From Bilabrum cf. latius (lineage: Eukaryota): a stretch of DNA of 64,000 nt. The DNA lies in assembly GCA_965178125.1 (NCBI GenBank), contig OZ237746.1:434001-498000 (forward strand). The letters run 5' to 3'. The number at the start of each line of letters is the position of its first letter. The stretch's first letter is position 1. Below, one piece after another: positions 2,363 through 60,169 of the stretch. The notes beneath the pieces were generated by a model, which was not told where the DNA came from, did not search any database, and saw nothing but the letters and a program-made list of their open reading frames with translations. A program made the position numbers and the translations under genes.

Positions 2363-2641
2363 TTCTAGCGCTGCTCAGAAGTGATGCAAATAGCGGCGCT
2401 CATCAGCACTGCTGGCAGGCTGCGCCGCCGGCGCCGGGCCCCGGGCCCTCTACGGAACCAACCACCTTGTGGAGAGCTGGCTCCATTAGAAATTTGGACT
2501 AGCAGGCTAATGTGTTTGATTGTGGTTGTACAACTTACCATTATTGGACTTTGTCAAGCTTCTGATTCCATGCTAAGCGTACAGAAGAACGCCAAAGCCG
2601 AATTTGCAGCCTCTGTTCGCTTGCGCCAAAGGGAGCGACAT

Positions 2642-6320: not shown

Positions 6321-6338
6321 ATTGCCTCTTGTCCAGTT

Positions 6339-35200: not shown

Positions 35201-38200
35201 GAAACCTCGGTCGACGCATGCGCTAGCTGCTGGCGAGTGGGGCGTCCCCCCGACTCGCAGGTGCCGCTGTGGTGTGGGCGGGCAAGCTGAGGCCTTCTGT
35301 GCAGGGTGGGGGCAGCGAGGCTGAGGCGGCTCTTAGGGCTTGCGCCCAGGTCTGGAACAGGACCATCATGCCGGACCCCAACGAATTCGAAAAGGCATCC
35401 GAAGCCATGGCGGCTTACTCCATTCAGCAGCTCACGCAAGCATGGGAGCTGCTGGTGCACCCGTTGTCTGCCGGGCAGGAACCGCTGCCTGACATGCGAG
35501 AGCTTGCGGCACGGGCCTGCCAGATCCTTGAAGTGGACCCAGGTGACAAGCTAGCGCTCGCTCCGTGGAAGATGCCGCCTCCGCCCAAGGGTAGGGCTGT
35601 GACGCAGTCCAAGGAGCTCACCGCAGAGATAGCGCTCAGCATTCTGAATACGGCTGCTGCTGGTCGGGCTGCAGGTGCGATGGTAATGGGGCTGCTGGCA
35701 GCGTGGAACCAGAGCCAGTCAAAGCACGACAGGGTTGTGCGCGCGGCAAGCCTGGTGGGATTTCTGCGGGGCGGAATACGAGGACTGTATCGTTTGGAGA
35801 AGGCGCACTCATCAGGCTTGCACGAACTGCTGGTTCCTAGCATACCACAAAAGACATCGGGCAGTGCCTCATCCAAATCCTCGAGCAAAGGCAAAAAGGG
35901 CAGCAACAGCAAGGGAAAGAAGGCCTCACTTAGCAGCGCAGCATCAGCGCTGCTTCAAGGCAATTTCGGAGAGAACACATGGTCAAGTAGGGCCCAAGAT
36001 GCTCGTAGGACGCATGTACTGAATGCCATTAGCTCATGTGTCCGCTCCCGGGAGGCACGCAAAGCTCACAAAATGGTCGAAACTGGAACTGTGGCGTCCG
36101 CGTACGTGCCGTCTGGTTACATGCTGTGGGCAAGGCGGTGCGGAGCGAGTGTAATAGGTGACAATCACGAACTGGGATCTCACTGCGCTGGGTCGTGGGC
36201 GGCCTCATGGGGAACAGCTAGCGCCCTCGAGACGGCTGACCTGAAGGACGCGCTGAAGGCACCCCACCGAAGCGTGGGAGAACAGCTTGCATTTGCTGCA
36301 AGGCTTGCTAGCTGTCAAGCATCCGTAGACGCAAAGAATCATGTAGCTCTAGTATCTGACGGCCAGGGATAGTCGACTTGCAGCTTTGGATCTCATGCAG
36401 AATCTGGGCTAGGGTCACGAGCCGACCCCGCCGGATTCCTGGCAGCAGCATCCACCGCGCCCACGCTAACACCTTGGTTGGCTGGAGGCAGTTCTCCACA
36501 GCCCATCGTGTGCGCGGTTGCTGGCAGTAGTGACAGCTCTGAACCGAGGGGGAGCGCATCGGCGTCCCCTGGTAAGGCCAAGCGTCGCGATTACCACCGG
36601 CGCGATGACGACTTGTCTTGGTGGGAGCCTTCGTTTGTGGTAGTCCTCGGCGCAGCGCAGTACGAGCCGGAGTCTGTGGCGCCACAAGTAACTGCAGCTG
36701 CAAAATCATCTGCAGATCCCGCAGTGCTGCAGTAGCTGGCTGGGGGCCAGTATCTATAGCCAATGTCTGCCCCAGCTGGCGTGCTGTCTACCCGCCCGCA
36801 CGCATCATCGATGCCTAGGTGTGTCGGTGCATGCGAGTCTTGCATGCCTAAATTAGCCAGCGGGGACTTCTGTCCCTTGTCTCTTTAGACGTTTGATGCC
36901 ACTACGATCGGGATGATCCAGTGCGACACGTGCGACAGCTGGTTGTACGCAGGCGCAAACGGCATGTCGGAGGAAGAGACTAGCTTGTTTCTCAAGGGAG
37001 TGCACCCTGCGTCCGGCTCTGCGTTCGTTTGCTCGCCATGCCGCGCCGCATTGATGGCCAAGAGCATTCAGCTTGTTCTAGCCGCCGATAAGGCCGGCGC
37101 CTTCCATCTTCCGATCGACGAGGACGTTGCGCCGGGCTACTTGCGGGTGGTCAGGCGCCCGATGGACCTGTCGACGATCGCCGCTGGGTTCGCATCTGGA
37201 TCGTATGTAGGGATTTGGGGCCCACAGCGGCTGAGGCAGGACGTTGAACAGGTGTTTGTGAACGCAATGGTGTTCAATGAAGCCGGTGACACGCTGTGGA
37301 AAGACGCTGCCAGACTGCTGGCTGCCTCAGCGCACGTGTTCGATCGCTGGCTTCCGTGGACGCACGTCAGCCGCGACACGTTGAAGCAGTGCTCGCCCAG
37401 GATAAACGCAGCAGTGCGCGGCAAGCTGTTCTCGCCGAACTATCCGCTGTCATCGCAAAGCAAGCGCAATTTACAACCGGCCAGCGCTGCCCAGGGGCTG
37501 GCGCAGGACCGTCGCGTGGGGCTGTACAAGCTCGCTAGCTGCCTACCCGGCGCCCAGTACATAGCTGGCAGGAGGTTAGCAGTGCTGTGGCAGCACGAGC
37601 CGCCCATGAGCATGTCAAAAGCGGAAGCAGATGCAGAAGAGGAGACGCTCCTGCTCATCAAGCAGAGAGAGGAGGAAGAGATGGAGGCGGAAGCGAAGCG
37701 GCTGGAAGCTGAGGCGCAGGCCGCCATGGTAGACGACGGCGATGACCTGGACGAATCTCTGCTTGGAGGTAGTGATACTGGGGGCACGAATGAGAAGGGC
37801 TCGGGCATGAGGCGTTCCGCTGCATCGAGTGGCTTGGCGGGCCACGATGCATACGACGATGAGGGCCCAGCAGGGGATGGTGTGGTCATGGTGGCCGGCG
37901 CAACTTCCGAAGCGGGTATTCGTGGTCAAGGCGCCCTGAAGAGCGGTGCCAGGCTGATATCAGTCCCAACCGTGTTCGGACAGCACGTGCGTGCGCGTGC
38001 AGAGGTTCTTGATTCTTGTACAAGCGTGGTGCCGGCCGCAGCAGCCCCGTGGCTGGCAGGCATCGACATGTGTGCGAGATGCGGATCTTTGGGCGACAGA
38101 CAGGATCTGGTGTGCTGTGCGCAATGCGGCCAGTCTGCCCATCTCGCCTGCCTCAAGGGCGATGAGGAGTCTTTTTTCCAAAGATTGAAGCGTACCAAGA

Positions 38201-41200
38201 GCCAATCCAGTGGGCGAACTGGAGCGGAGCTGGTAGTGTTTGACACCGTCTCGAAGCATGCATTAGGTGCCGAGCAGAAGGGCGTATTCGGTACAGCACA
38301 GCGCGAGGATGGTACGCTGGACGCGGAGGTGGACGAGGTTGAAGACGATAGTCGCGTGGATCAGGGACCCACGAAGCATCTGCTAGACGCTTCATGGAAT
38401 AGCTTCGCGCCGACCGGCCGTGCAAGCCCCGCTGGCGCCTGGCGTTGTGTTCTAGATGACGATTTCTACAGCGCACCGCCGTCGACCAAATCTGATGATG
38501 CTACTGGGGAGGACGAGGAACGTCCTGGCCCCGGCTATCCGCCTAGCTTTGACCAGCTCGCCAGCCCGCTGCTGGCTCCTGGCGCCCAGACCATGCTGGC
38601 TCAGACCGGTCTGTCGGCTGACGGCGCAGCTGCGAAAGGCAACCAGACTGGTGGCACTAGCGGTAGCGGTGGCCCGCCGACCCCTTTGGAATGGCCTTCC
38701 AAAGAAGACTGGCTGCACTGGGCATCTGTTCGGAAGCAGGCAGCATCGAGGTGCTGCATCGTCTGGACGTGCGGAGATTGCCGCAATCGAGAATGCGAGC
38801 CGTTGGCTGGTCTCTTGCGACGCGACGAGGCGCCCCCCTTGAGAATTGGCGAATCGGTGCTGCTGTACCCCCCGGCAAAGGCGCGAGAAAGCGCAATGAT
38901 CTGGGTGGACCAGGTCATCGCAGTGACATCGCCTACTAACGCAGTGTCAGGCTAGGAGGATTCTGCTGCACCCTCGCAGTCTTCACCGACAGAGCCGCAT
39001 TTCGGGTTTTTAGATGGCGTATTGCAGGGACCCAAAACAATGCAGATTGCAGCGCAGTAGTCTGCGGCTGCTCTTGTCCAGACGAGCGCATCAAGCGCAC
39101 CTCCAGTGCCGGTGCCGGCGGCCGAAGACGCAGACCGGTTCAAGGCGGAAGCGATGTGTTCCGCTGCGGCTCATTTTGTGTAGGGGATAGAACAAGGGGC
39201 ATTAGAAGTGCAACTGAGCGCCCAGGCGCACGAAGGCGCAGCTGCGGTAACATCTCCGGCCGTGCAGGCCGTTTGCCCGCTCACTCGGGAGCAGCGGGTG
39301 ATCGCTGTCCGATGGGCCGTGCAATGCGTGAGGGCCGTGGCATGGGTGCTGGGAACCTCCAGCCAGAGGAAGGGTCTATCGACAATCATACCGTATCCTA
39401 GTGGCGCCATAGCGGCGAACCAATCCACGATTGCAAGCGTGTCTTCTTCCTCCTCGTCAGCTTTAGCTGCCAACGGTGTGTCGGGCGCACAATCTCCTGC
39501 TGCTGCGGGCCACGTGCTGTCCATGGAAGTGTGGACTGGTACGCCCAGTCTCGCATTTCCCGCCATGCAGGCATGTGCGCCGGTCAATGCCCCGGCTCTC
39601 GGCACTCGACTGACCTTCACTCCTGCTTCCCTGCAGGGGTGGTCTCAGATCGAGCCTGCTGCGAGACGTATTGCCGGATCCTTCGTTCGAACTGTCCTGT
39701 CTCTGGACCACAAGTCGTCAACTGCGGCGGCGCTGTGGGCCACCAGTGCTCAAATGTCGGCTGGAGATGTGCCTGTTGATGTTGGCTCCATCCCCGCCGT
39801 TGTGGCTGGCCGACACGCTGAGCAGCTCTTTGCCGGTGGCGTGCCCTCGATGGAGACTGCCAGGCGGGCTGTCATATCCGCCTCTGTTCTCCGCCGGGCG
39901 GCTGCAGAGCAGATGGTGGGTGCGCTACGAAATGGGCAGCAGACGCGCAGGTAGTACATCGCCAGGCATGGGATCACCTTCGGGCAAGGTCACGTCGTTA
40001 ACCCTGACCTGGTGACAGTTGTGGACCAGGCGGCTGTGGCTGCGATACGGGGGGAATACCCCTTTCACAGTGACGTGCTGCAGCAAGCAGTCGCCTGGAA
40101 CGCAGATCTTGGGCATGCCACTGCACTCCAGATCGTAAGGACCCAGGCAGACCGATAGCTGGCCTCGGTTCCTACGGGACATCAGGCTGAACGGGCTTCT
40201 GGTCGCGACGATGCTTACTGGCGGGAACTGGCAGCCGCTGCGCGGAAAGCCAGGGCCAGCGCAGCAACTAGACCCCATGCCAACGCAAAGGCTGTGCGCA
40301 GCACCAACAAGCACGATATCGCGCAGGACGCGCTGAAGCTGCTGCCGTAGTTTGTCCCGGTGCCCCTGAGGCAGGTGGTGCAGGCACTCCCCGAGGGCGA
40401 CGAGATCGAGTCTCACGAGGCCCAGCCGTGGGATGCCGATTGCTCGCTAGCCGAAATGTGCGAGTCTGGGTGGCTAGCACAGCACCGGGATAATTCGCTG
40501 ACGGAGGGCCTGGACAAAGCCATTCCAATCACGGCATCCGGGCGGCTGGTGCAGAAAGGTCTCGGGGTGGCACAGCTGCCGAATCTTCTGCCTCCTGCAA
40601 GCCGTGCGGAGGAGACCGCGCTGGTGAACTGGTACTGCAACGTTATGGCGCAGCGGATGGGTTATGCCAAATCCATGCAACGGCCACCCCATGACGGATC
40701 CGATTCGCAGGCCGCCGTTGATGCTGCTGGACGAGACAACGACACCGGGTCACGTCAGGCCTCCCTGGTACTGCGGGGAGACCCCTGGCAGCACCCGCCG
40801 AAATACGTGCTAGAGAAAGCAATCCGCTGGCTGGGAAGAGCCAGCGATCTGGATGGATCTGACTCGAATGAGAGCGCAGTTTCGGCCAGTTTCACCGTAC
40901 GCATCGATAGCGATCGCGCTGCTGCTGTCGCGCATCACCTGGAGCGACGGATGGACAGCGCATGGCAAACACGAGGGGAGGAAGCCGACTCTGGAGCGGC
41001 ACAGTCAACCGGGTCCTCTGCGGGAATTGCGGGCTGCAGACTGCCTTCGGCTTGGGTGGGCGACATGGGGCCGCCACAGGCGCAGGCAGCCGACACGTCG
41101 GCCAGTGCGGCAGGGAGCAGGCCAAGGTCGGAGCGAGGGGGGAGGAAACGGGGCGCGGGGGCGTCAGCCAGCGCGTCTGTAAGTGGTCACAAGACTGATG

Positions 41201-43644
41201 ATACGGCTAGCTTATCCACCCTGATCCGCAGCGTGGCCCGCGCTGAATCCCAAGCGGAGGATGAGGTGGAGGTGGATCCTCGGTCGCAGTTTGAGACGTC
41301 TGCTTCGGACGCTGTTGTCAAGCTGCCAATGCTAGAAGACTTTGATTTTGGCTTGGGTGACGATTCAAGCGCTGCCACCGGCCATTCGGGTGACAACGGC
41401 GCGTGGTCCTCGGCGTCCGGCACGGGCGAGTCGCCGTCTTCAGCACCAGTGAGCCATGCAATGAGCGATGATGCCGAGGCAGAATCCCCATATGCAGGCA
41501 TCATGGGCGGTGCAGCAGCTGCGCTTGATGCAGCAGGCAGTGCAGAATTTGCAGCGGAGCCAGAGCTGCTGGCGAGCCGCGAATCGTGGGTGCGGACAGG
41601 CAACACCACGGTTGTCAACACCGGCGTCCCTACCCTGGCCCTCGTATCCCCGAGGCAAAACTTCACAGAGCGTAAGGACAGGTTCGCGTTCGTGCCTGAC
41701 GGATACCTCGCATTCGCCATATTTTGGTCGCATTTAGACGGTGGCAGGCGGGGACTGTACAGGATGACTGTGCGCACTGAGGCGGTGGGACACGCACGAG
41801 GTGCAGTGACCCCACGACGGGCAATCTTTGCCATAGACAGCGAATCCAGAGATGAATCCGACCACCCTATGATCAGCGTGCAGGCAGGCTGTCCCATAGG
41901 GGCGACCACGGAGCTTGTCCTCGCCCTGCGCCGCCTGAGCACAAAGCAGAGCGCAGTGCTGGGCGTGCCGCCACCGCCGTTGCCGTGGATGGCAGATGCA
42001 TCACTGCTTGCTATTGGCACGTATTTGGAGCCGATCTTGCTTCAAAATGCGCTGACGGATGACCCGGACAGCGGCAATGGCAAGTCGCCGCGCAGCCGCA
42101 GCCCAAGCAAGCGGCAGCGCAGCCCGAGCAAGCGTGCAGCGAGGCACGGAGGCGACGCGTCGCGGTCCTCGGAGTAGGGCTCCAATCCAGTCTTGGCTGC
42201 CGGGCTCTGGAACTTGGGGCAGGTGTCGGGCACGCTCCGGGCCACTGCGTGCCGGCTCCACCGGATGGCTGATGCTTCTGACTCCGAATGGTTCGCAGGG
42301 TTTGACCTGATGGGCCTTCTTCGCTCTGCCGCCCTTGCAGATTTCCGCAGGCACGCCAGATACATCATGGGTGCGCCGCAGGAGCAGGGACAGGAGGTGG
42401 CGGAACGGCCACCCCCCTGGAAGGTGGTCACAGCAGACGATGCGCATGCGGTAGGGCTCGACCACCTCGCCGCCGAGATCCGCATCTGTGAAGCCGGCCG
42501 TCTCGCCGCCACCATACCCTCCAGCAGAGGCACGAAGAAGAAGCGCAGACGATCGACAAAGCAGGAGGAAGTATCCAGCAGAACCAAGGCAGATCTCATT
42601 TCAAAGATTAGGGACATGAAGCGGGACTCTGCCATTCAAACGCTGTAGGACTTGGCAAGTGGAACGGGTGCATTCGCAAGGAGTGCTGCTTCAGGCCCGG
42701 CATCAGGCGCAGGAGCTTCGTTTTCATCGTCGGCCACATCCAAAAACGGACCGGCCACATCGCTGCAATTGTCCTCGTCGTCCTCAGCAGCGAGTGCATC
42801 TGCTGGCGAGCCTCCCACCCCTGGTGACGCCGGCCTGAAGCGCAAGGCCAACTCCCACACCGTCCGCGCCCTCTACCTCAAGATGCTGGCCGAGCCACTT
42901 GAGGACAGAGTCAGGGCGCTCAGATCTGCCATTCATGGGTACGGGCTCTTCGCAGCGCGCGACCTCCGGAAGGGCGAGTTTGTGTGCGAGTATACCGGCG
43001 AAGTGCTCCGCCAACCCCTTGCAGACGTGCGAGAGAGGCTGTACGAGCGTGCTTCACTGGGGGGAGACTGCTACCTGTTCCGTCTGGATGACGACTACAT
43101 CGTGGATGCAACCATGAGAGGCAGCGTGGCGCGGTTTATTAACCACAGCGGTGACCCGAACTGCGATAGCAGGATCGTGCAGCTGCCCACCCAGGTCCCG
43201 GTCTCTCTGTAGGGCGTGCTGCAAGTGCCGATCCGGGGGCCGGGAGCACAGGGACTGGCTGATGCTGGCGTGGGGGTTCTTGCGAAAGAGAGGGTTTCTC
43301 AGGATGAAGCTCTGCTGGGCAGTGCTGTCGATGTGAGCCGCGGGCGCGGGAAATCTGGGGGAGTGTCACCATCTTCGGAAGCGGCGGGAGGTGTGGTGGA
43401 GGGTGGCACAGCTGGTGCGTTGGGCAGCGCATTCGGCCCCGGGGACTCTGGCGGCGCGTTTCAGAGCAAAAAGATCGTGATCGTGGCGCTAAGGGACATC
43501 AAGAGGGGTGAGGAAGTAACGTACGATTACAAATTTCCGTTCTTTTTCACGAGGCAGGCCCAAGAGGCCGTGGCTGCGGTGGAGCAGGAAGTGGCAGAAA
43601 GGGCCATTGAGCGAAAGTTGCTGATTGATGAGGGGTGCACTTGA
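29281..43644 (+). CDS. Trithorax/MLL/SET1-like histone H3K4 methyltransferase (~4,760 aa, TAG=Gln; intron 29377-29466)
   Basis: A single frame over 29467-43644 with about 38 TAG and no TAA/TGA. PWWP-like LVWGREPNVPWHPC; PHD-like FCPL...MIQCDTCDSW...FVCSPC; bromodomain APGYLRVVRRPMDLSTI...NAMVFN; second PHD CARCGS...CAQCGQSAHLAC; FYR-like VPDGY..IFWS; SET SAIHGYGLFA / YLFRLDDDYIVDAT / RFINHS / EEVTYDYKF. Confidence 0.85.
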
Positions 43645-43804: not shown

Positions 43805-45110
43805 ATGGCGGCCGTTGCAGGAGGAGGTTCTAAATCTACTGGTGTTGCTACGAGTGATAAGGAAATTGGCGAGGTTCCGAAGGAGATTCTCGATATGACA
43901 AGGTGGGCACTCCCGAATTGTTGTGCCTCCAGGTGCATTTGTATTGTCCTGATTTGTCCAAGCCGTTCCAGGCACCGTGCGCCTCGCACTTTCGAGAATA
44001 AAACTACTTCTGTATGCACACTCGCAGCGCATCATACTACCAAGACAGCTACTCGCACTTCGGGTGAGTTGAAGAAGAGACGAAAGTGCAAGTACCGCCT
44101 CGGCGCACCAATGGACGGGCGCACGATACTTCTGGTTCCGTTTTTATCTTAAAACCTATTTCAAGTGCAGTATTCACGAGGAGATGCTTAAGGATGAAGT
44201 CCGCACCAGAAGCTACATGGATTCGATCGTTAAGAACAAGCACTTGTTCAAAGATAAGATTGTCCTCGACGTAGGCTGCGGCACCGGCATTTTGAGCATG
44301 TTTTGCGCTAAGGCAGGCGCCAAAAAAGTGATTGGAGTGGACTTCAGTGCCATCATTGAGCAGGCCCGCGAGATCGTGAAGATCAACGGGCTCTCGGACG
44401 TAGTCACCCTTGTGCGCGGCAAGGTCGAGGAGATCGAGCTGCCCGACGGTATCGAAAAGGTTGATATTATTGTTAGCGAATGGATGGGCTACTGCCTGCT
44501 CTACGAATCCATGCTCGACACGGTGCTTGTGGCGAGAGACAAGTGGCTGGCAGAGGACGGGATGCTCTTCCCCGACAAGGCCACCATGCACGTAGAGGCA
44601 ATCGAGGACGCCGAGTACATGGCGGAGAAAATCGATTTCTGGAACTCGGTGTACGGCTTTGACATGTCACCGATCAGGAAGCTGGCCATGCTGGAGCCCC
44701 TGGTGGACACTGTGGACGAGGGCCAGGTCATCTCGGACACGTGCGACATCCTCGAGCTCGACATCGCCAAGGTGAAGAAGGAGGACCTGGCCTTCAAGGT
44801 GCCTTTCGAGGTGACCTTCAAGAGAGATGACTACTGCCACGCTGTGGTGTGCCACTTTGACATCGTGTTCGGGCACTGCCACAAGCCCGTTGTGTTCTCC
44901 ACCGGTCCCCACGCCGAGTACACACACTGGAAGCAGACGGTGTTCTACCTCAAGAAGAGCCTGGTGGTCAAGGCGGGGGAGAAGCTCAGGGGAACCTTCG
45001 ATTGCAGACCCAACGACAAGAACCACCGCGATCTTGACGTGACGATGACGTACGAGTTCAAGGGCGAGCTGGGAGAGGCCAGCTTCGAGCAGGAGTACCG
45101 CCTGCGTTGA
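43805..45110 (+). CDS. PRMT1: Protein arginine N-methyltransferase 1 (~357 aa; exons 43805-43902, 44028-44063, 44171-45110)
   Basis: The spliced N-terminus [23 protein letters not shown] restores the PRMT1 motif. Also VLDVGCGTGILS, SEWMGYCLLYESML and THWKQTVFYL; ends YRLR-TGA. Two phase-consistent GT-AG introns. Confidence 0.95.
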
Positions 45111-45439
45111 AGGTGTCTTACAGTTGCCAAACATTATTTTTCCGGTTGCGTGCTGCAGCCAAACTCATTTCAAATTGATGCATTGAATTTCGAGAGTGAG
45201 AAGCAAGATTGTGCCAGTGGTCGGCATTGCGGCGCGTGTCGTCGCAACTTGATGAATGCCGGCAAGCTCTTCGTCGGCAACACCAGCAGCATTCGCACAA
45301 CTTCGACAAATAGCACGAAAGGCGTTTCTTCAAAAGCACCAATTGCTCGTATCGTATCGTGCTCTGGCTGACACCTCGAGTGCACAGATCGAATTTTCGT
45401 GACTGCTCGAGTTCCTGAACGTAGTGCTTCAGGCTCTCC

Positions 45440-48400
45440 ATGGACGCTATACCTGTGGTTCAACGTCCAAGCGCACCTGCAATAGATCATGCCATCTCTG
45501 TTGATGAAATGGTTCGGGAGGCAACTTGCACGAATGGTGTCGTCGTGGTTTGTGGGGCGGTCGCTGTCATCGCGGTGCTTTCGACTGCCACCACGATAAT
45601 CACGAATAGGAGGTACGATGATAACATCATTCGAGGGGCTGACCGCGCATACTCTGTAGATTATATGATGCCTTATTTCGTAGGGCTCAATGATACGACA
45701 GAGTCGCCTCATGCGACCGAGGGCAGCCACGCATTCGGCCTGTTGGCATCGCAGTTTGCCATCGGCATTATTTCCACGGCAATTATGGCAAGCAGTCTCA
45801 CAGCATGTGTCATTTTTATTGCATTAGTAGCAGGAGAGTGCTCTAAAGACAGCCATGTGGGCTCTAAAGGCCGCCATGTGGCTGGCTGGAGGCCGTGCGA
45901 CCTGTCTGCCTGGAACCGTCACTCCATCGTCACTGTCCTCCTCGCACTGCTATCCGTCGCTATCACATGCGAGGCGTACTACCAGTACATTCCAGCTGAG
46001 GACCAGCCGGGCATCTTCGGCACTGGTCCCATCCCAGTGTCCGGCATGCACATCACCAACATCATTCCGTTCATCTGGAAGGTTGCGGCTGCCGCCATCT
46101 CCCCGGTTGGTGTGACGATTGGGCTCTCGATCTCGCTGGAGGACACGGACCAGATGCCATTGGAGGCGTTCTTGACGACGTGTGTGGTCGTCGCCCTCGC
46201 AACTGTCATTGCTGTCATCATCGGGGCCACCACGGCGGAAGATCCCAAGGTCGAGTATGGCCTTAAGCGCAGCAGGGTCTTCTGGATCGTCGTGTCGGTG
46301 CTGGGTGTCGGCCTATGCGCTGCGCTGACCAACGCTGCAATCTCCATCAGCAAGCTGGGACTGGCGTAGGGCACGGCATCTCTGGGCCTCTCCGCACTCA
46401 GCGACATCGGCCGGCTGGGGACAGGTGCGAGCAGCACCAGGTACGGCAGCAGCGGAGGGCTCCGGCTCCGGCTCAACAGCAGCGCTGCCACTGCCAGTGG
46501 AAGCACTGACTGGCTCTCTGGTGACAACGATAGCGTTGCACTTCTTAGTAGCGGTCTGGACGTATCTTCACAAATGTTAGGTACGAATGGCAGGCCACTT
46601 GCGAGCCTTGCTTTGCTGCGTCTGGCGAGCCTCACAGAGTAGTTGCGGCCCACTGGCATTCGCTCGTACGACCCCTTAGCAATCCTGCAACACCACGCGG
46701 ATCGTTTGGAGGCTGAGCAGGGACTCAATGCGCGCTAGGCCCTATATGCTCTATCGCCGCTGGCCAACGGAGTGGCGCTGACGGAGGACAACAACTGGTG
46801 CCTTTACTACGCTGCACAGATGGACACGCAAGCAGCGCTAGCCATGCGGAGCCACCTTCAGTCCAACGGATCTCTCCCAGTCAACCTGATGACCAGCCAA
46901 GGAAGAGAACTAACTCCAAGTGCATCCGGTTCATCGCAGCAAGTGGAGGTCCTGCGAGCGCTGCGGAATGCCAGTGTCAGCGCCAGTGACGCAAGCATGC
47001 GTCAGGCGTTCTACGGCGACATGCCCGCCCCGACCACGCACGTGTTCTGGGCGATCGCGTCGCTTCCGCTCGGAATGATGCTTCAGGTGAACCTCGCCGT
47101 GTTTGTTGTGCTGGTGCTGCTTACACCAAGTACGGGCATGGATGAAACTATCAAAACGTCCAGCAATGAGTTCCGGGCGTGGCTGCTCGAACGCACCAGA
47201 ACTCGATCCAAGCGGCATCTCGGGCGCGCGCGCACAGCGGAGCCATTGGCAGGCAATTGCGTGACGTGCGGAATGGCAGATGATAACTGTGTCGAGTTCA
47301 AGCACTGGCTGTGTTCTACATCAGCATGTTGTTGGATCTGCTAGTGTCAGTGCTGGAGCGGCTGCTCGGCGTGTAGTCCTTCGTCGGCACGGTCTAAGAA
47401 CCTGATAATGCGTTTGGAGCGAAAGCAGATGCGAAGGCGCTCAACATCTGGATCTTCACAGAAGCACAGCAGATCACTGCCTTCTCAAAACGGTGCTGCT
47501 GTCATTGATGCACCTGCCCTGTTGAGAACTGCCGCTTTTCATGAAGTATCATCCGTTGCAGCGAGCGCCGTAGGTTGTTGCCCGCGAGGCCACGGCTAGT
47601 CAAAAGCTGGAGCATTCGACGGCGCGTTTCCTTGCTGTGGCACGCAATAGGGAGAATCCAGTGATTGGTAGCGCAATCAACACGCAGCCGCATCTGCCCT
47701 GGTGCAGGCCAGTATGCGTCGTGCTGCCACAGTCGCCATGTATTTGAAAGGGCTGGCCGTACTAATATTCTTTGAGATGCTGGCTGGTGGACGGATCAAA
47801 TCGAGGGTTAGGATGGAGCCACCAAGACTGTGTGCTTGCGCCTACAGCCGTATCGCTGGCATGGATGGGCTCTGGGATCAGTGCACGGAGGAGCAGCAGT
47901 CTGCTAGCATTGATGATCTCTTGGGCTCGTTTGCGATGGGAGCGATTTCGACAGGGATCACCCGTCACTTGTCTACCCGAATCATATTTGTCGTGCTTCG
48001 TATCATGCTCGTGTATTGTGTGTTCGTGTATGCCCGCTAGATGCGGGATCTAGAGCGGGCCGTGGACATGTCTGAGATGTAGAAAGCCGCGCTGCAGTCG
48101 AGGGTGCGGTTCCTGTCGCACGAGTGCAGGGTGCCTCTGAACTCGGTGGTACTGGGTCTGGATTTCTGCCAGGAGGGAGCCAAGGCGGCTCGACAAGCAT
48201 TGGAGGCGATGCATCGGACGGGCGCGTCCCCAAACTCTGGCAGTCCTGGCTCGCTGGATTAGGACGGTGGAGACAGCAGCGCACTCAAGAAGCGACGGTA
48301 GTCTGTGCCTCGCCGATAGGCCTCCTTTCAGGTAACTTCACGTTCCAAACGACGAGGGTCGTTCGTTGAAATGCAGAGGTGTGGCAGTGAGAAAAACATC

Positions 48401-51241
48401 GTGGACGGAAAGACAAAAGCGATCTTGTCTAGTACATCTCGAGAGAGCTTACCGCTCGAACGTCGGAGACGGTAGTCTGGAATTGGCAGTACTGTGTGCA
48501 GCTTGAAAGCAATGAAGCTGCTGCAGGAGGCTGTGGGTCTCTTCGACGACACGCTGCCCTCGCTCGAGGCAGCCACAGAGGCAATGCAGACCACCTTCAA
48601 CGACGTGCTCGACCTGCAGCACATCGAGACCGGTAGTCTGAAGATCCGCAAGAAGGCCACGAGGCTGCTGCCTTCCTGCCTGCTAGATACACGTAAGACC
48701 TTTGAGGCCCAGGCAGAGCGCAACCACACGGGGCTAGTCCTGGCTGACTTGCATCCAGCCAGCGGCATGCCGATGGAGTGTGACCCAGTGCGGGTGAGAG
48801 GAGCTCTTGGAAACTTCGTGTCGAATGCACTGAGGTGGACCGATGCGGACACTAGCGATACGAACAACGAAGGTGGCGGCTCAGTGGTGATCGGCAGCTC
48901 AGTGGTGCCTCCGCACCTGTGGGACGAAACAGACTGGCAAAAGGCTGTGTCCACTGTTGGCAAAAAGCTTTGCAGCCGCATGCAGGCAATCTTAGTGACA
49001 GACAGGACACATTCCATGGCAGATGCACCGCAGGATAGCCACACGCAAGCTGGATCGAAAAATGGAGATGGCTGCCAATCCAGTGGTCGCAGTCTCCCAG
49101 ATGACTCCGACAGCAGCGGCGACAACGCGAGCAGCAGTGGTCAGAGCAGCTGGACCGGGACTACGTCTTCGCAGGGCAAATGTGTGAAAGCTTCGCGTGT
49201 CATGCCTCTGCCGTCCGCGCCCATTAGCTTCGGCGCACTGTCTACGCGTAGGCTGCGAGCGTCTGGTGATTCCAGCGGAGCAGGGTCAACCGATGTTGAT
49301 ACCTCCATTGCAGATCCACGCTGTACGCGTCGCAGCACGTCTCACCAGGACCCGCCTCCGCAGTCGGACTCCATAGATCTCCCAGCCGCCCACTGCATCC
49401 GCTTGGGTACTTCTCCCCCGTCGCTTGGTAGTCCAGGCACACCACACAAGGGTCGACAGTGCGATGTGACTGACACGTGCTCTGTCGCGCAGATCGCCCC
49501 AGACACTGTCAGCAACTATGATGACATGGTCGAGATGTACGAGGCGTAGAATCAGTCAGGTTCCACTGTATATGGTGACTCAGGTGCCCTGGATTCAGGT
49601 GTCAGACATAGCACCGCGATAAAGCCCAGTTCTCAGGCAAGGACAAGCGCGAATGTAGGCGCTAATCATCCCTTGAAAAAGCACGACAGCGATCCGTTCA
49701 GCGGTGCAGGCACCTGCACCGAGAGGCCTGAGATTCAGCTCGTCTCTGCCGATGCGCCCGGCGGGGACGACGACCGCCGGCCCTCCGCTCCATCTGGCTC
49801 TGACACAAATGATGTAGCGGCTCCTGTTGCTGAGCTCTCCCAAAGTGGCACTGGTAGAACCGCGAAGAGCGGGAGCCGTAGTGGATCTGGTTCTGTAGCT
49901 GCTACAGATATGCCAGTGTGCCTGTGGGTGTTCGACCAGGGCCCCGGCATCGACCGGTCTGCCTGGGGCCAGGTCTTCACGTCCTTCGAGACGCTGCACT
50001 CGGGCATCCTCACGGCGGAGGGGCAGGGGTCCGGGCTGGGGCTGGCCATCACTGCGACCGTGATGAAGATGCACGGGGGCTGTGTGGGCTTCAGCTCCAT
50101 GCCTGGTGTGGGCAGCGTTTTCTTCCTGTGGACAACCATGGACGTGATCAGCGGCACCCATTATCGCAGCCAAGGGAGTGCGTCGAGCCAGACGAGTCGA
50201 ATCAGTGGTCGAGGTGGAGGGGACGGGCAGATTCCCCAGGAGCTGCTAGAGCCGAGCCAAGCTGAGCCCAATCACGACGATCATCATCATCGTGCCCTTG
50301 GCAGCTTCTTGGACGACAACGCTACCGTGTCGAGTTGCGCCGGGGGTAACGTTCTCAATCGTGAGTTGGCGAGGCCAGATTCGTCTGGCTCGCTGCTAGA
50401 GGCGGCTGGCGGCCTAGCTGCTGGCCGAGGCAAGGAACGTACAGGTGACGTGAAGCTGTTGGGAGCAGGTACTGACAAACCAGAAAGTCTTGCTGGCAAT
50501 TTAGAACCTAGACTTGCTGCTGAGCCCGATGTGAGCACATTTGCTGGGATAGGTGCTCTGTGTGCTGCCGAGCCCTAGGTTGAAAGCTTGAGCAAGCGGT
50601 CTTTTCGCAAGCCAGAACGTGGCGCTGTTTTCAGAGCAGATGTACCGGAGTATCCGGCCAGTGCAGGAGTGGCGCAGGCAACAAGCATGGGCTCTAGCTC
50701 CGGACCGAAACAGGCATCCAAAAAGCGTAGAGTGGTGCGGAGGAAAGCCAAGAACAATCAGTTAACTGCGCCTAGCACAGCAACATCAGCCCAAGCTCGA
50801 CCGAGATAGATGGTTGTCCTTGTAGTGGACGACAGCCGCACCAACAGGCTCTTCCTATCACGCATGGTGCGATCTGCCGATCGATCCATTCAGGTGCTGC
50901 AGGCTAGCGATGGGCAGGAGGGGCTGGATGTGCTCAAGCAGAGAGCCCAGCAGATGGGAGATCAGGCCCACGGTCTTGCTGCCGACCTGGTGCTGCTGGA
51001 CTTCTCCATGCCTCGCATGTCCGGGCCCGAGATGGCGCGGGCCATGCGGGAGGACAGCGACAGCCGTATCAGCGGGGTGCCGATCGTGGGTGTGACGGGC
51101 AACGCGCTGCCCGAGGACCAGGCGTTGTTCCGGAGGTGCGGGGCGCAGGACGTGCTGCTGAAGCCGGTGCGGCGGGCACAGGTGGGTGAGGCGCTGGAGC
51201 GAGTGGAAAGGCTGCAGCGGGCACTTCGTGCATTGCGATGA
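45440..51241 (+). CDS. Multi-transmembrane hybrid sensor histidine kinase HK2 (~1,930 aa, TAG=Gln)
   Basis: Paralog of HK1. ORFs 45440, 46772, 47408, 47702, 48494, 49673 and 50810 share one frame with TAG-only breaks. Same H/N/G1/G2 boxes and receiver; ends at TGA 51239-51241. Confidence 0.88.
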
Positions 51242-51755
51242 GTAATGAGATCCCTAGATTCCGAATTTCGGATTCCCGATGCTTGGACTGAATGCAATTT
51301 AAGCGCTAAGGACTAGCGTAACGAAATCCAAAATATGGATGCATTAGCATGTTGGCCCTAGTAGCAAGCAATTCATGGTCGATCCGAATTTCGGGGAGAT
51401 TCCGAACTGGATCTATAGGGTCCCAAAGGACTGCCAGACGAACTGATGCTTTAAACGTTGTCCGTTTGGATCAGAAAGCACTGCAGCACCGAGTCGTGCC
51501 AACGATGCAACCTCGTCAGTGTGTACCCGTGAAGCAAAATCCAGCAGCCGTGTAGCAACATTCAGCATCCATGAAGCAAAACTAACCCACACAGTGGGCA
51601 GCTCAAGTCATGCAGTCGCGCTCATAAGAGTCTTGAACCCGAGGCGCTTGTACCTCGCAGGTACTGGCCTAGAGTGTCTCTCACGAAAATCGTACCCTGC
51701 ATGCCATTGAAGAGAATGGACGCGATACCACTCTGTCCAAGGTAGATGATCACAT

Positions 51756-54067
51756 TTAGGGCTCCTGGAAACTGATGCCCTTCAAATGGCAGAAGCCTGG
51801 CAGCTCATCGGCACCCCTTGGTTGCACAGCCTTGCTCAGCGCTTCCCAATGCGGTGGGCACGGGATATCGTTCCCATCACCTGCTTGCACGAACGTCGCA
51901 GTCGGTGTCTTCTCTGGTGGGGTGACTGCAATCGCAGCGGTGATGTAGGCGTGAATGGCCAGGTCCGCCATATCAGGTGATCCAATCAGTGCCACAGACT
52001 CTCCAAATTTATTCGCACACCCTTCCAGAGTGACCTGCCGCGCGGCGGGAGGGCTAAGAGGGAAGGTACTACCTCTTAGGCTACTCAAAGCTGCTTTACC
52101 CGATGCTGCTCCGCCTGCAGAGAGTGTTGTTTGGAAGCGAGGACGAGACACGCTGGCATGAACCTCGTTGCATTTCCCATAGCACTTGCATTGCGCTTGC
52201 GACGTGCACAGGTGCTCCTTCTGCAGGACGCGGTAGACGTTGTGCGCGACCTGCACGCCTTTGTCGGGGTACGTGCGTAGGCCCATCAGCACTGGCACGA
52301 AAGCAATGAGCATGCCTTGCCCGGCCACGTGGTCAATGTGGTGGTGATTGGACACACGCTTGGCTTCCTTGCCACCCACCAGCAGTCTCGCGGCACCAAG
52401 CATGTTTGCGAAACGATCGGAGTTCATCTCAGCACCGAGTGCGTTATACATCCACTGCATGTACTGAGCTTTCGCGGAGTTGGTTGCGTCTTGCTCTTCT
52501 GCAGGTGTCTACGCCCCTGCACCACTACTTGGACCTCCGTCCTAGCCTAGGACGGCAGATTCTTGATCCTTGCGAACCCATCGCTGTATGTCAACTCCCC
52601 AGACGAGACCGTTGGCCCTGTAGTTGTTGGTCAAGGCACTCGTATCCCAAGGGCTGCCTCCTCTTGTCTACGCACTCGGCTTCTCTGGCTTTTGTTGCTT
52701 AGGCTCTGCCTAGGACGGACCCAGCGCGTACACCCCTTTGAGACAGTCAACGATGGCCTGATCGCTATCTGCATTGGAATCTCCGCACCACCGACCGTCG
52801 AACGCCCCACCATCCATCCTGCTCTGCAAGACAGCCTAGTAGGCAGCGAGAAACAGTTTTGCCAAAATCGTGAGGGCCTTGGAGCCATGCTGATCTTGCG
52901 AGCGTCTTGGCGGTGGCAAATGTCCGTGTATCCCGGCGTTAGTTCCTGCCGCACCCCGAACATCTCCACGACATCCGAGTAGGAATCGAGTAGGCGGCCA
53001 TTTAGGTCTCCTTTTACTGTCATATCTGCTGTTAGAACGACCAGTCGGTCGGTTTTCCGGAGTGTCTGCACCGCTTCTACTGGTGACATGGAGTGGGTAT
53101 CCCCTTGCTTTGGTTTTGATGATCCACCACCTGCGACCTCAGGAGCTTCTTGGCCACTCTTGTCGTCTCCAGATCCAGTTTCTCCGCTTGTGTCTGCTCG
53201 GGCAGAGCTACTGGTAGATCCAGAGACTGGTGACTTCCCGCTGCCTGGTCCACCTGGACCCCCCCCACCTTGTGGTTCAGACCCCCTGTCAGACGGAGAT
53301 GATCCCCCCTCGCCACCGGAAACCATGCTTTTGACGCGGTCATCAACGCGCTTTCGAAGTTTCTCCTGGATCTCCTTGATCTTGGTGTTGTCAAAACCAT
53401 CCTTGAACTTCCGATTCTGCTAGGAAGACACGTACATGACGCTGGCCTGCGTCTGTGGACTCAGATCGCCGGATTCGAGGAAGCGCGGGAGCTCCGTAAA
53501 GGCCCTCGGCAGCTGCTCGTCCCTGTCGACTTTCTTAGGCTTCTCCCACCCAAACATGGCATGCTCCTGGAGAATGGCAGCGAGGTCACTGTAGTCTTCC
53601 ACAGCTCTTAGCGCGGTTTCGTCACGGACGCCGGCACTCTGCCTCACTAGAGCTTTCTGAATCCCAGCTTGAGTAATAGGGCCACCCCAAGGCGTATTCG
53701 GGATGTACAGGGCTGGTAGTTCGCACGTTGCGACCGCATGCGTAGTATCTCTAGCTGTTGCGACCTAGTACACAAGGGCAAATCGGTTGTTCTGGCTGCG
53801 ACATTGACACATCAGGTTGACGCACACTTCAGGGTAGTCCTTGCAGAGATCGTCTTTCCTCAAAGGTATAGTCGGAACGCTTGAATCATGCTTGATACTC
53901 TCCTTGATGACCTCTCCGCGCAATTCCAGGCTATTTACCTCAGCGACACCCTTGATGTCGTTCATATCACTTACAAAGATCTCCAAGGATGCAGTTAGTA
54001 CACCAGTTGCATCAGAAAGCGGGCCAGTGCTTGTATGCGACAGCCTGTACGCTCCGTTGGCTGCCAA
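51756..54067 (-). pseudogene. Unknown protein 'X', copy 2, with a 1-nt frameshift near 52881 (pseudogene or sequencing error)
   Basis: atggctc-caaggcc versus X1 atggctcacaaggcc. Homology resumes in the shifted frame and ends FCHLKGISFQEP-TAA at 51756-51758. Confidence 0.65.
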
Positions 54068-54342
54068 AAGTCGCTACACTTTGCGCTCCCTTTGGCGCAA
54101 GCGAACAGAGGCTGCAAATTCGCCTCCGGCGTTCTGCTATACGCTTAGCATGCCGTCAGAAGCTTGACACAGTCCAATAAATATAAGTTGTACCACCACA
54201 ATCAAACACATTAGCTTAGCAGTCCGGGTTTGTAGTGGAGCCAGTTCGCCACATGATGGTTCCGTCGAACGTCGCCGCCGGCGGCGCGGCGCCGCCACAT
54301 AGGCCATACTCCACTATTTGCATCTTTTGAGCAACGCCAGCA

Positions 54343-56104
54343 ATGAGCAGCCCTCCGACTGACGCCAGCGTGTTTTTGGATGAACTCGCTACCCTGAGGG
54401 GGCCAAGGAATGGATTTATGAAACGGTACATATCACTGTTTAAGAGCAGTGGGTTCTGGCAACGATACGATGCGTGCAGATTGCTGCCATGTCCATACGC
54501 GAGATGTTTTCCCGATACCGAGCCATTATCGATCCTGTACGATAGGCCGGCGACTGTTGAGAATGTGAGCTGGTGCCCAGGTGTGCTGGACTGACTATTT
54601 GTTTGCACGAATCGTATGCCATCAGTAGTGTGGTACTTGTGTTTTAATCAGCACAGGTTTTGGGATACGTCTTTTTCACGAATGGCTACGAATGTCCAAA
54701 TCTTCACTAGGTACGACAGGTCGTTCCGGACAGAGTGTTGTCGGCACGCAGCGATGTGAGAAACGCGGTTGCGGCTCGCTGGGACCCCTTGTATCGCCAA
54801 CTGCAGCATTGATCATCTCGTTTGGCTTCGTTCCACCTTCGAGTTGCTTGTCGGTGCTCGGCACGCAGCTCGGGCTGACGGTGGTCCACGGTGCTGCCTA
54901 CCAAGGGTACTTCAGATCCCTGCGCGGTCTCCAGCGCATCGGCTTGCTGCACAACGACCGCACAGGATCCGTGTGCGACAAGGAGCAGGGCAGTCCGCTG
55001 GAGGGGAAAGGCGAGTTCGGGCGGCATCGGCTGCGTCGTTGGCTGGAATCGAGCGAGGCAGCCAAGCTAAATGAAAGGTTGGAAACGAGGGTTTCAGAGT
55101 ATCTCAATCGCAGCTATAGAGAACCCTCGCATTGCCCTGGCATCCCTCTAGCTGATACCCCCTTGCATTTGGTGATGTATCGTACCAACTTGTGCAGTGG
55201 CCAGCAGTAGATCAACGCCTTCGCCTGCATGGCTCTCCTTCTCCGATCAGGAGGTGACCTCACGGCTGTGAACGACCTCGGGTACACGCCGTTGAAGCAC
55301 GCTTCCGCTGAGCTCAAGGAGATGCTGGAGGACGTGAAGCACGACTCCATGGCCTGCCTGAGGCGCATGCTGGAGCGGCTGCCCCCTCACATGGCTAGGG
55401 CGTGCGCGTGGCACGGCAGGGGGCATGACGTGATACGGTTCCGGCGGGCGCACGAGGCGCAGCGGGACGCTCGGATGGTGCATCGAGCGGCGAGGGAGGG
55501 CAGGCCACTGGAGCTGGGGAAGCGGCTGCGGGTGGGTTGGTGGGCGGGAGGGGCGTGGTTGCTTGGTGGGAATGGGTCGCCAGGTGCGGGCCTGAGTCCG
55601 CTTGCGTGCGCGGTGCAGCAGGGGCATGTGGAGTGCGCGAGCGTGCTGCTGGGGGCGTGGAAGCGGGGGCATGGGAGGGTTGTGTTTGGATCACCTGCGA
55701 AGGTTGGCGGTGCGTTGATCGGTCGGCGGGGCTGGGATGGTATGATGGACGGGATACTTGACGCGATCCGCAGCGGGGTACAAGCGGGTGTGTGCTAGGG
55801 TGGTGGCCGGGTCGAAGGTAAGGAGGACGAGGGCCGTGTGGCCCATGCGTTGGTGGAGGGGAGGGCGTGGTGGGGCGGGGACAGGGAAAGGGAGGAAGGA
55901 GACAAGGTCGGCGGCAAGGCGGTGTGCGGGGGTGTGAGTGTGACTAGCAGTGGGAATGCAAGTGAGGATGACACGGGGAATGGCCGTGGCAGCAGTGATC
56001 GCCTAGTATACTTGAATGGGCGAGCAGCGCAGCTCGAGCGGGAGCTCGCCGAGGTCCGGTCGGAAATAGCACTTGCTAAGGCTGGATTAAGTCGAGACAG
56101 CTGA
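54343..56104 (+). CDS. Ankyrin-repeat-like protein, copy C (~500 aa; exons 54343-54564, 54711-54755, 54869-56104)
   Basis: Same splice sites as copies A and D. The TGA at 54592-54594 falls inside predicted intron 1. Reads through TAGs at 55208 and 55796 and ends at TGA. Confidence 0.72.
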
Positions 56105-56850: not shown

Positions 56851-58606
56851 ATGAGCAGCTCTCCGACGGACGCCAGCGTGTTTTTGGATGAACTCGCTAC
56901 CCTGAGGGGCCCAAGGAATGGATTTATGCAACGGTACATATCACTGTTTAAGAGCAGTGGGTTCTGGCAACGATACGATTCGTGCAGATTGCTGCCATGT
57001 CCATACACGAGATGTTTCCCCGATACCGAGCCATTATCGATACTGTACGATAGGCCGGCGACTGTTGAGAATGTGAGCTGGTGCCCAGGTTTGCTTCAAC
57101 TAGTCTACGCGAACCGAATTGATGAAGTAGTGTGGTACTTGTGTTTTAATCAGCACAGGTTTTGGGATACGTCTTTTTCACGTATGGCTACGAATGTCCA
57201 AATCTTCACTAGGTACGCCAGGTCGTTCCGGACAGAGTGTTGTCGGCACGCAGCGATGTGAGAAACGCGGTTGCGGCTCGCTGGGACCCCTTGTATTGCC
57301 GACTGCAGCATTGATCATCTCGTTTGGCCAAGTTCCACCTTCGACTTTCTTTTTGGTGTTCGGCACGCAGCTCGGGCTGACGGTGGTCCATGGTGCTGCC
57401 CTTCGAGGGTACTTCAGATTCCTGCGCCTTCTGCAGCGCATCGGCTTGCTGCACAACAACCGCACAGGGTCCGTGTGCGACAAGGAGCAGGGCAGTCCGC
57501 TGGAGGGGAAAGGCGAGTTCGGGCGGCATCGGCTGCGTCGTTGGCTGGAATCGAGCGAGGCAGCCAAGCTGAATGAAAGGTTGGAAACGAGGGTTTCAGA
57601 GTTCCTCGATTGCAGCTATAAAGAACCCTCGCATTTTCCTGGCATCCCTCTAGCTGACACCCCCTTGCATCTGGTGATGTATCGTACCAAAGTGTGCAGT
57701 GGCTAGCGGCAGATCAACGCCTTCGCCTGCATGGCTCTGTTGATCCGATCAGGAGGAGACCTCACGACTGTGAACGACCTCGGGTACACGCCGTTGCAGC
57801 ACGCTTCTGCTGAGCTCAAGGAGATGCTGGAGGACGTGAAGCACGACTCCATGGCCTGCCTGAGGCGCATGCTGGAGCGGCTGCCCCCTCACATGGCTAG
57901 GGCGTGCGCGTGGCACGGCAGGGTGCATGACCTGATACGGTTCCGGCGGGCGCACGAGGCGCAGCGGGACGCACGGATGGTGCATCGAGCGGCGAGGGAG
58001 GGCAGGCCACTGGAGCTGGGGAAGCGGCTGCGGGTGGGTCGATGGGCGGGAGGGGCGTGGTTGCTTGGTGGGAATGGGTCGCCAGGTGCGGGCTTGAGTC
58101 CGCTTGCGTGCGCGGTGCAGCAGGGGCATGTGGAGTGCGCGAGCGTGCTGCTGGGGGCGTGGAAGCGGGGGCATGGGAGGGTTGTGTTTGGATCACCTGC
58201 GAAGGTTGGTGGTGCGTTGAGCGGTCGGCGGGGCTGGGATGGTATGATGGACGGGATACTTGATGCGATCCGCAGCGGGGTACAAGCGGGCGTGTGCTAG
58301 GGTGGTGGCCGGGTCGAAGGTAAGGAGGACGAGGGCCGTGTGGCCCATGCGTTGGTGGAGGGGAGGGCGTGGTGGGGCGGGGACAGGGGAAGGGAGGAAG
58401 GAGACAAGGATTGTGGGAAGGCGGTGTGCGGGGGTGTGAGTGTGACTAGCAGTGGGAATGCAAGTGGGGATGACACGGGGAATGGCCATGGCAGCAGTCA
58501 GCGCCTAGCATACTTGAATGGGCGAGCAGCGCAGCTGGAGCGGGAGCTCGCCGAGGTCCGGTCGGAATTAGCACTTGCTAAGGCTGGATTAAGTCGAGAC
58601 AGCTGA
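56851..58606 (+). CDS. Ankyrin-repeat-like protein, copy D (~500 aa; exons 56851-57072, 57213-57257, 57371-58606)
   Basis: Tandem duplicate of copy C. Reads through TAGs at 57704 and 58298 and ends at TGA. Confidence 0.72.
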
Positions 58607-58726: not shown

Positions 58727-60126
58727 ATGGTAGAACCTTCCGCCGGGTTGTGTTGCCGTGAAATGCCAAAGCAGACGCAAGGACGTGATCTAGTAGATGG
58801 CATTTCTGTTAGCGCTGTTGTTGGTTTGCTTGAAGACTCTAACAATGTGCTCTTATCACAAGCAAACCAGCATGATTCAGGTGAGCAGTATTGAAACGCA
58901 TTGCTACGGTCCGAAACTAAAGAAAAATGCCTGCAATATATCTAAAATGAATTGAATAAACCGCAGGGTCCGACGTTGATCCTGCTGATGCCCGAACATT
59001 TGCAAGAGTACGCGGGGGTATTTGGAAGCGCGGCGAGGCCGGTCCGCTGCAGCGTCTCGGGACACATCCGAGGTATTTCCTAAGAGATCCTGCTGGGATA
59101 CCAGCTGGAATTGCGAACCTTGGAGCTACCTGCTTCCTGAATGTTTGCTAGTAGGTGCTTGTCCGTGACGAAGCGGTTCGGGCGAGCGTGCTCGCCGCAG
59201 GGGATGCGATTGACGATCTTCTCCAAAAGACTGGAAACGATTACATCAAAGCCGCAGAGCTGGTACTCAGTGAACCCTTACAAAGCATCCCGCCGGGACG
59301 AAGGAGCTTGTTCACAGGCTCAAAAGAATCGCTGCCTTCGATGAAGGTGCCGAAGCTTGCCAAGCAGCTAGCGACAGTGCGAGCAGTCGCGGCGGCATGG
59401 ACCCATATGACCTTCGGCCGCAGGGCCTTCTTCAAGCCGGAGGCCATCGTTCACCTTCTGAGCATTGCACCTCAGGTACAGCAGGACGCTGCGGAGTACC
59501 TCACTCTCTTCCTCAACTTCATCACGGAGATGACTGCGCTGGTGCTGCGGGGGCGCGAGGCAGCTTCGGTGAAGATTCTGCACGGGCACTATCGCGTGAC
59601 CGAAATCAACTCACGCAAGTGCTTGATTTGCAAGTATGAGTCCACAAGAGAGGAGGAGCACAGGCTGCTGGTGAGTTGCTAGCGCTTTTTGAATCATCCC
59701 ATGCAAGAGGCTTGCTCACTCACTTGTTTGCTTGGCCTTCGTGCTGCTGACCGTATTTGCGAGTGAAGCTCTCGACCTGTGTGCTAACGATGTAGCTGAT
59801 TATTCCACTAGGTTGCTCATGGGCGCCTTGATGACATTGCTCGTGCTTGTGTCAATCCCCAATTGAAGCGAGCTCACCCAGCGCACGACTTCCCCATTCC
59901 GCTAATTCGAACAACCTACTGGTCGCAGGGGCTCTCGCTAGCAGGAGACTGCCGAGATTTCCAGTCCATCGTGCGCGCATCCTTCCAGTCAGAGCTCATG
60001 TACGGCCAGAATGGCTACGCTTGCCAGCGCTGCATCGAGAAGAGAGAGGCCGATATTCTCTCTGGCAAGATTCCCTTAGACTCAGATGCAGGGGCTGCAA
60101 AGAGCAGCGGCAGTGGCACCCGTACT

Positions 60127-60169
<43 letters not shown>

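Follow-up and report, generated by a model that had tools for sequence, protein, structure and literature searches.

In this study, we examined stop codon usage in a 64-kb stretch of DNA (contig OZ237746.1, positions 434,001-498,000; hereafter the window, with coordinates counted from its first nucleotide), in which TAG occurs freely inside long genes and TAA does not. The window is nuclear DNA of a GC-rich and likely flagellated eukaryote whose cytoplasmic translation most likely treats UAG like any other glutamine codon and terminates mainly at UGA, with UAA excluded from sense use. Assignment of UAG to Gln with exclusion of UAA from reading frames is well supported. Below, the evidence for each part of this reading is laid out, followed by the explanations that compete with it.

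Gene content of the window

The window is eukaryotic nuclear DNA, as seen from its Pfam gene content and its spliced GT..AG introns, and its GC content is ~59% all along. With the standard code the longest open frame is only 688 aa. Translating TAG as an amino acid opens up frames of 4743, 2333, 1940, 1926 and >1400 aa, which contain 38, 18, 17, 16 and 23 in-frame TAG codons, respectively. Standard-code gene prediction on this organism would fragment nearly every long gene. A bacteriophage using code 15 (TAG=Gln) was also considered as the source and is ruled out by the eukaryotic chromatin, USP and PRMT1 genes and by the spliced GT..AG introns. The genes needed for the analysis are as follows.

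2303..5446, + strand: X1, intact paralogue of X2, a 1047-codon frame with 6 TAG, ends in TGA
9275..15055, - strand: HK1, hybrid histidine kinase, 1926 codons with 16 TAG, ends in TGA (Pfam HisKA, HATPase_c, Response_reg)
20666..27667, - strand: low-complexity gene (g20666), 2333 codons with 18 TAG, ends in TGA
29413..43644, + strand: SET/bromodomain gene, 4743 codons with 38 in-frame TAG, ends in TGA (Pfam SET and Bromodomain)
44170..45110, + strand: last exon of PRMT1, no TAG, ends in TGA; the gene is complete in the window (Pfam PRMT_C, E=8.7e-64)
45419..51241, + strand: HK2, hybrid histidine kinase and paralogue of HK1, 1940 codons with 17 TAG, ends in TGA (Pfam HisKA, HATPase_c, Response_reg)
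58960-59766 plus 59800-63999, + strand: USP-type deubiquitinase gene (Pfam UCH, E=1.1e-07)

Four ankyrin-repeat paralogues (Pfam Ank; ank1 to ank4) are also present.

UAG is a sense codon in mature mRNA

Codons were counted in nine long frames (14,973 codons), with the five remaining frames of each stretch as background. TAG is under no detectable avoidance in the frames: it is found 123 times, or 8.21 per 1000 codons, against a background of 7.98 per 1000.

Four public sequencing runs were aligned to positions 43001-63000. In the run designated X2 (distinct from the gene X2), one contig is colinear with the window over 43001-48110 without any GT..AG skip, whereas contigs from runs X6-X8 carry GT..AG-bounded skips in PRMT1 (43900>44026 and 44062>44170), in ank4 (57072>57159) and in the USP gene (59669>59928). 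Because such skips are present in these contigs and not in run X2, we consider the contigs of runs X6-X8 to come from spliced RNA; the runs are taken as RNA-derived solely from the GT..AG-spliced contigs that the DNA run X2 lacks, and none is on record as RNA. The introns removed in them are the following.

43900>44026 and 44062>44170, + strand: the two 5′ introns of PRMT1
57073..57158, + strand: GT..AG intron at the 5′ end of ank4
59670..59927, + strand: intron of the USP gene with GT..AG borders; its two flanking exons agree in codon phase

The spliced contig that joins 59105-59669 to 59928-60118 has 0 differences from the window and includes the TAG codons at 59149 and 59152. Since both are unchanged in a spliced RNA-derived contig, they are neither intronic nor edited. 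TAG is thus a sense codon in mature mRNA.

UAG is most likely read as glutamine

The identity of the amino acid was approached through the paralogue sets of the window (the two HK genes, the four ank genes and X1/X2), using TAG sites at which at least 6 of the 10 flanking residues are identical. In pairwise cells, the partner codons opposite TAG are TAG (14), CAG (13), GGG (4) and GAC (1). When the cells are collapsed by hand into distinct conserved sites with a non-TAG partner, CAG stands opposite TAG in 7 of 9. The remaining one-step neighbours of TAG are GAG, AAG, TTG, TCG, TGG and TAY, and none of these is found opposite TAG at conserved paralogue sites.

A second line of evidence comes from the USP gene and from a relative of this organism represented by the metagenome contig L001, which is described below.

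59149..59154, + strand: pair of adjacent TAG codons in the Cys box of the USP gene; L001 has CAG at the first position and, like the window, TAG at the second

The Cys box reads GATCFLNVC-TAG-TAG-VL in the window and NVW-CAG-TAG-IL in L001. Its second TAG aligns with a conserved Gln of USP9X (5wch) and of yeast Ubp6 (1vjv), in alignments that are weak over the whole sequence (E 0.29 and 0.91), the family assignment being that of the Pfam UCH match. Judged from the exchange with CAG both among paralogues and across species, UAG is most likely decoded as Gln.

UAA is not a sense codon

No in-frame TAA was found in the 14,973 codons, where ~43 would be expected from its rate in the other five frames (2.87 per 1000). 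CAA is common in the nine long frames, with 195 CAA vs 458 CAG (30% of CAR codons), and an expectation built on CAA (195 CAA multiplied by the TAG/CAG ratio of 123/458) gives ~52 in-frame TAA. We also considered whether the choice of frames could have produced this absence. When TAA is read as sense, the frames at 9275-15055, 20666-27667 and 45419-51241 are not lengthened, four other gene frames gain 2-8 codons each, and the N-terminal frame of X2 gains 96 codons upstream, which are taken as 5′ leader. A scan that makes no use of open reading frame boundaries returned 41 TAA sites with 60 stop-free codons on either side. Coding-like flanks are seen at 3 of the 41, all of them antisense inside the SET gene, compared with 88 of 247 sites for TAG. 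Because reading TAA as sense barely extends the frames and the boundary-free scan agrees, the absence of TAA is no artefact of frame choice. UAA is not sense, and UAG and UAA behave differently in these genes far beyond chance.

An earlier interpretation made from the window alone (the sequence-only reading) had proposed that UAG and UAA are decoupled, that the reconstructed coding sequences contain no in-frame TAA, that CAA is a common Gln codon and that twelve genes end in TGA. The counts above and the gene ends named in the next section bear out all four proposals. In-frame TAA at conserved Gln positions, which the same reading had named as the observation that would speak against it, was found nowhere in the window.

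Gene ends and the single TAA

Twelve gene ends in the window are TGA, namely those of ank1, X1, ank2, HK1, g15585, g18172, g20666, the SET gene, PRMT1, HK2, ank3 and ank4. The conserved C-terminus of PRMT1 ends in TGA both in the window and in L001, and TGA does not occur in frame within the reading frames. The thirteenth end is that of X2, which has the following features.

51756..51758, - strand: TAA closing the C-terminal frame of X2, the sole TAA gene end in the window
51750..51752, - strand: in-frame TGA two codons past the X2 TAA (TAA-ATG-TGA)
51756..52880, - strand: X2 frame B, the C-terminal part with homology to X1; 375 codons with the TAA counted, among them 5 TAG and no TGA
52631..54415, - strand: X2 frame A, N-terminal and 79% identical to X1, out of register after the deletion, ends in TGA at 52631-52633
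~52881/52882, - strand: deletion of one nucleotide in X2 as compared with X1 (X1 CAC, X2 C-C), ~375 codons upstream of the TAA

RNA-derived contigs from two runs cross the site of the deletion (52199-52924) with 0 differences and 0 gaps, and the deletion is therefore real. X2 is also transcribed past its TAA: RNA contigs run from 52210 to ~51282-51354, and the TAA in them is unchanged. Relative to an FCH motif shared by both genes, this TAA lies two codons beyond the position of the X1 TGA. Over 374 codons frame B contains neither TGA nor TAA, and its end lies no more than two codons from that of X1. As the frame stays open to an X1-like terminus, the TAA at 51756 was probably the functional stop with which X2 once terminated, until the 1-nt deletion, a recent event, put it out of use.

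The sequence-only reading had placed the X2 TAA almost exactly where X1 ends in TGA. The proximity is as described, at two codons, but the frame that contains the TAA is not entered from the X2 N-terminus. Likewise, its statement that TAA ends one gene is accurate in that an X2 frame does end in TAA; the copy, however, is frameshifted and has a TGA two codons further on, and a single TAA end is no more than composition predicts. The caveat attached to that statement, that X2 could be pseudogenic, was correct, and the case is weaker than had been claimed, given the 1-nt deletion, the nearby TGA and a copy that is still transcribed.

How many TAA ends should be seen at all? From composition, TAA is predicted to make up ~15% of TAA plus TGA stops, which gives P(0 of 13)=0.12 and P(<=1 of 13)=0.39; with three genes of L001 added, P(<=1 of 16)=0.28. 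Since so few TAA ends are predicted, finding 0-1 of them in 13 genes is uninformative. TAA as a backup stop within 25 codons after the TGA is seen in none of the genes of the window and in one gene of L001 (PRMT1, codon 20). Overall, we consider a function of UAA as a stop plausible, with the chances clearly in its favor.

A relative with the same pattern

When metagenome contigs were scanned for PRMT1, 80 loci were obtained. Just two of these are close to the window, L001 (10,134 nt) and L002 (2,712 nt), with 94% identity in amino acids and 83% in nucleotides; the best of the remaining loci obtained is 65% identical. L001 carries a RING/PHD gene (1699 codons, 12 TAG), a CFAP97 homologue, PRMT1 and the first exon of the USP gene. 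Its 2,566 codons include 17 TAG, 0 TAA (8.4 expected) and 0 TGA, and all three of its complete gene ends are TGA. Because L001 displays the same pattern, the trait is common to a clade. The CFAP97 homologue, cilia/flagella-associated by its Pfam name, makes it probable that the organism is flagellated.

Among named organisms, PRMT1 matches best in Bicosoecida sp. ms1 (65%) and Palpitomonas (64%); Mucoromycota, a chytrid, Hemimastix and Saprolegnia come next at 62-64%. A PRMT1 phylogeny had been proposed with the sequence-only reading as a way of placing the organism. In a tree of 21 rows, hand-picked from the best matches, the window and L001 are joined with support of 100/99, but together they fall into a polytomy, outside those Fungi that were sampled, which leaves the lineage unplaced. 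Because of this, and because the window has neither an eRF1 nor a tRNA gene, the independent origin suggested in the sequence-only reading is no more than a possibility.

PRMT1 scans of viral contigs and of genome contigs yielded no locus of this lineage. Their sole match is a 59%-identical, eukaryotic-type PRMT1 fragment on a 1-kb contig of a Microbacterium arborescens assembly (QNUV01000063.1, 1-1015), which is probably contamination.

Proposed mechanism and alternative explanations

The pattern could be explained by a tRNA-Gln with anticodon CUA that would read UAG and be unable to pair with UAA, together with an eRF1 that would have lost recognition of UAG but kept that of UGA and, most likely, of UAA. 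On this view UAA would terminate few genes for no other reason than the scarcity of TAA triplets at this composition. Several observations weigh against this explanation or limit it. No tRNA gene and no Rfam family was detected in the window, L001 or L002 by tRNA and Rfam scans, and no eRF1 gene is present in the window, so the decoding mechanism is one that we infer. Informative Gln sites are few, most TAG codons being in low-complexity sequence, and the paralogue sites are partly non-independent, as the genes derive from one segmental duplication; the weak 5wch and 1vjv alignments belong here as well. With regard to termination, unambiguous TAA-terminated genes number 0 among the 13 window ends and the 3 L001 ends. 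The lone TAA sits in a frame entered only after the frameshift and not from the X2 N-terminus, and if it were not a terminator the X2 product would be longer by merely two residues, up to the TGA at 51750-51752.

These last points are the ones that would be expected if UAA were unassigned. In that case a UGA-only eRF1 would be combined with tRNA-Gln(CUA) as the sole new decoder, and UAA, neither read nor released, would be purged everywhere. TGA at 12 of 12 unambiguous ends in the window and 3 of 3 in L001, the lack of in-frame TAA, and a sole TAA located in a frameshifted copy two codons before a TGA are all compatible with it. However, with composition predicting ~15% TAA stops, 0-1 in 13-16 genes is not a significant shortage (P(<=1) of 0.39 and 0.28), and UAG-only lineages keep UAA as a terminator, at least in the part of the source available (PMC5304391). 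Frame B of X2, TGA-free for 374 codons and closed by TAA near the X1 terminus, also fits a former working stop. We regard an unassigned UAA as unlikely. If true, a flagellate clade not sampled before would have UGA as its sole terminator and represent a natural intermediate between the standard code and UAR=Gln. The ordinary UAR=Gln code of hexamitids, many ciliates and Amoeboaphelidium would likewise give unambiguous gene ends that are all UGA, and TAA would be a Gln codon made rare by high GC. This is contradicted within the window by the 0 TAA in 14,973 codons vs the 43-52 expected and by the 0 vs 8.4 in L001, and reading TAA as sense adds at most 8 codons to any gene, save for the 96-codon upstream extension of X2; such a code can hardly be at work here. 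Lastly, UAG could be ambiguous, meaning Gln inside genes and a context-dependent stop at some ends, as in systems of the Condylostoma or Blastocrithidia type. There are just 13 gene ends to judge from, and HK1 does have a TAG four codons ahead of its TGA. That TAG faces CAG in HK2, though, in-frame TAG is present at the background rate, and no gene of the window needs TAG as its end (among 13 ends, which is few). We consider ambiguity of this kind highly improbable, and return to UAG as a dedicated Gln codon, with UGA as main terminator and UAA outside the sense codons, as the preferred explanation.

Segmental duplication and other genes

The paralogues used above derive from a large inverted segmental duplication (627-15055 vs 45419-58606), in which the block ank-X1-ank-HK1 (~0.6-15 kb) is mirrored by HK2-X2-ank-ank (~45.4-58.6 kb). 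Identities between the copies are 76-90% for the ank genes, 79% for the N-termini of X1 and X2 and 48% overall for HK1 and HK2, whose receiver domains are near-identical. The HK2-X2-ank-ank block looks like an insertion in the lineage of the window, because in L001 the USP gene directly follows PRMT1. The X family (X1/X2) has no Pfam match, and a run of ~9 GEDGEGEDGGT repeat units in X1 (2303-5446, + strand) is missing from X2. A search of a protein collection with the ank family gave no near-length match.

The 345-codon frame of PRMT1 (44073-45110) has 0 TAG, with ~2.6 expected in 312 exon codons at the rate of the window, which could be due to avoidance of the codon where genes are conserved or highly expressed, or simply to chance. 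Two further features were noted.

18301-19812, + strand: gene g18172, a 503-aa protein, secreted-looking and without a Pfam family
27651-28936, - strand: long tandem repeat spanned by two overlapping open frames, one of which consists of ~20 acidic EEKHEQPADAGAG-type units

Homologues of the 503-aa protein are patchy, being found in Monosiga brevicollis and Bigelowiella natans (45%) and among a few unnamed metagenome proteins (48-54%); the Monosiga brevicollis homologue is labelled 'right handed beta helix' in UniRef. The repeat frame at 27651-28936 adjoins the 2333-codon gene on its 5′ side, though in a different frame, and could belong to that gene via an intron or a frameshift.

Comparison with known genetic codes

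UAA and UAG are nearly always reassigned jointly. In the accessible portions of two papers, the exceptions among nuclear genomes amount to a handful of lineages (PMC5304391; PMC11687900). A further UAG-only lineage would help to separate the limits set by release-factor recognition from those set by tRNA pairing. The present one is a useful case, as it is GC-rich and apparently non-ciliate, with long contigs, RNA data and at least one relative with the same trait. Its near-exclusive use of UGA makes it testable whether a UAG-only code is a stable end state or a step toward UAR=Gln.

The sequence-only reading had called UAG-only Gln rare and given Iotanema spirale as its example. Rare it is, but there are more cases than this one, since Protocruzia tuzeti and two phyllopharyngean ciliate lineages also use UAG, and not UAA, as Gln in the part of McGowan et al. 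(2024, PMC11687900) that we could draw on. In Iotanema spirale (Fornicata), UAG encodes Gln, and UAA as well as UGA terminate translation (Panek et al., 2017, PMC5304391, partial text). As in the window, UAG alone is reassigned, to Gln, and in-frame UAA and UGA are lacking (PMC5304391, same portion). The two differ in that UAA is the predominant stop of Iotanema in that account, whereas here TGA stands at 12 of 13 ends with no clean TAA end. In addition, GC content is high here (~59%), and PRMT1, at 65-68% identity to many eukaryotes, shows no particular divergence.

In Protocruzia tuzeti and the phyllopharyngeans the codon change, as far as the same portion of text goes, is the one proposed here, and it has arisen repeatedly. 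The window is 64 kb of contiguous GC-rich DNA with 14-kb genes and GT-AG introns of 86-258 nt, and judged from these features it does not look like a ciliate macronuclear chromosome, so that the lineage is apparently not a ciliate. Decoupling of UAG from UAA in a non-ciliate nuclear genome has parallels in the rhizarian exLh, where UAG=Leu (PMC5304391; PMC11687900), and in Scotinosphaera, where UAG=Ser (PMC11687900), according to the sections at hand. The amino acid there is another one; here TAG exchanges with CAG and never with TTG or TCG. Amoeboaphelidium protococcarum shares with this organism a stop-to-Gln reassignment outside the ciliates, and is reported to use UAR=Gln in the excerpts available (PMC5304391; PMC6299283), whereas TAA is not sense here. 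Amoeboaphelidium genomes have ~40% GC (Table 1 of PMC10608142, seen in extract) compared with ~59% here, on which ground we rejected Amoeboaphelidium as the source. The PRMT1 clade of the window lies outside the sampled Fungi, and no NCBI Amoeboaphelidium protein is among the 120 PRMT1 matches listed. Of the sequencing runs that share sequence words with the window, one that contains a small fraction of them bears the label 'algae metagenome'.

We found no description of a GC-rich non-ciliate lineage with UAG=Gln in searches limited to open-access papers and bioRxiv, so earlier publication is possible. The UAG-only Gln code is an already known type that has arisen repeatedly, as the accessible text of the two main sources indicates (PMC5304391; PMC11687900). 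With respect to these systems, two features may be new, namely a GC-rich and apparently non-ciliate lineage and the near-exclusive termination at UGA.

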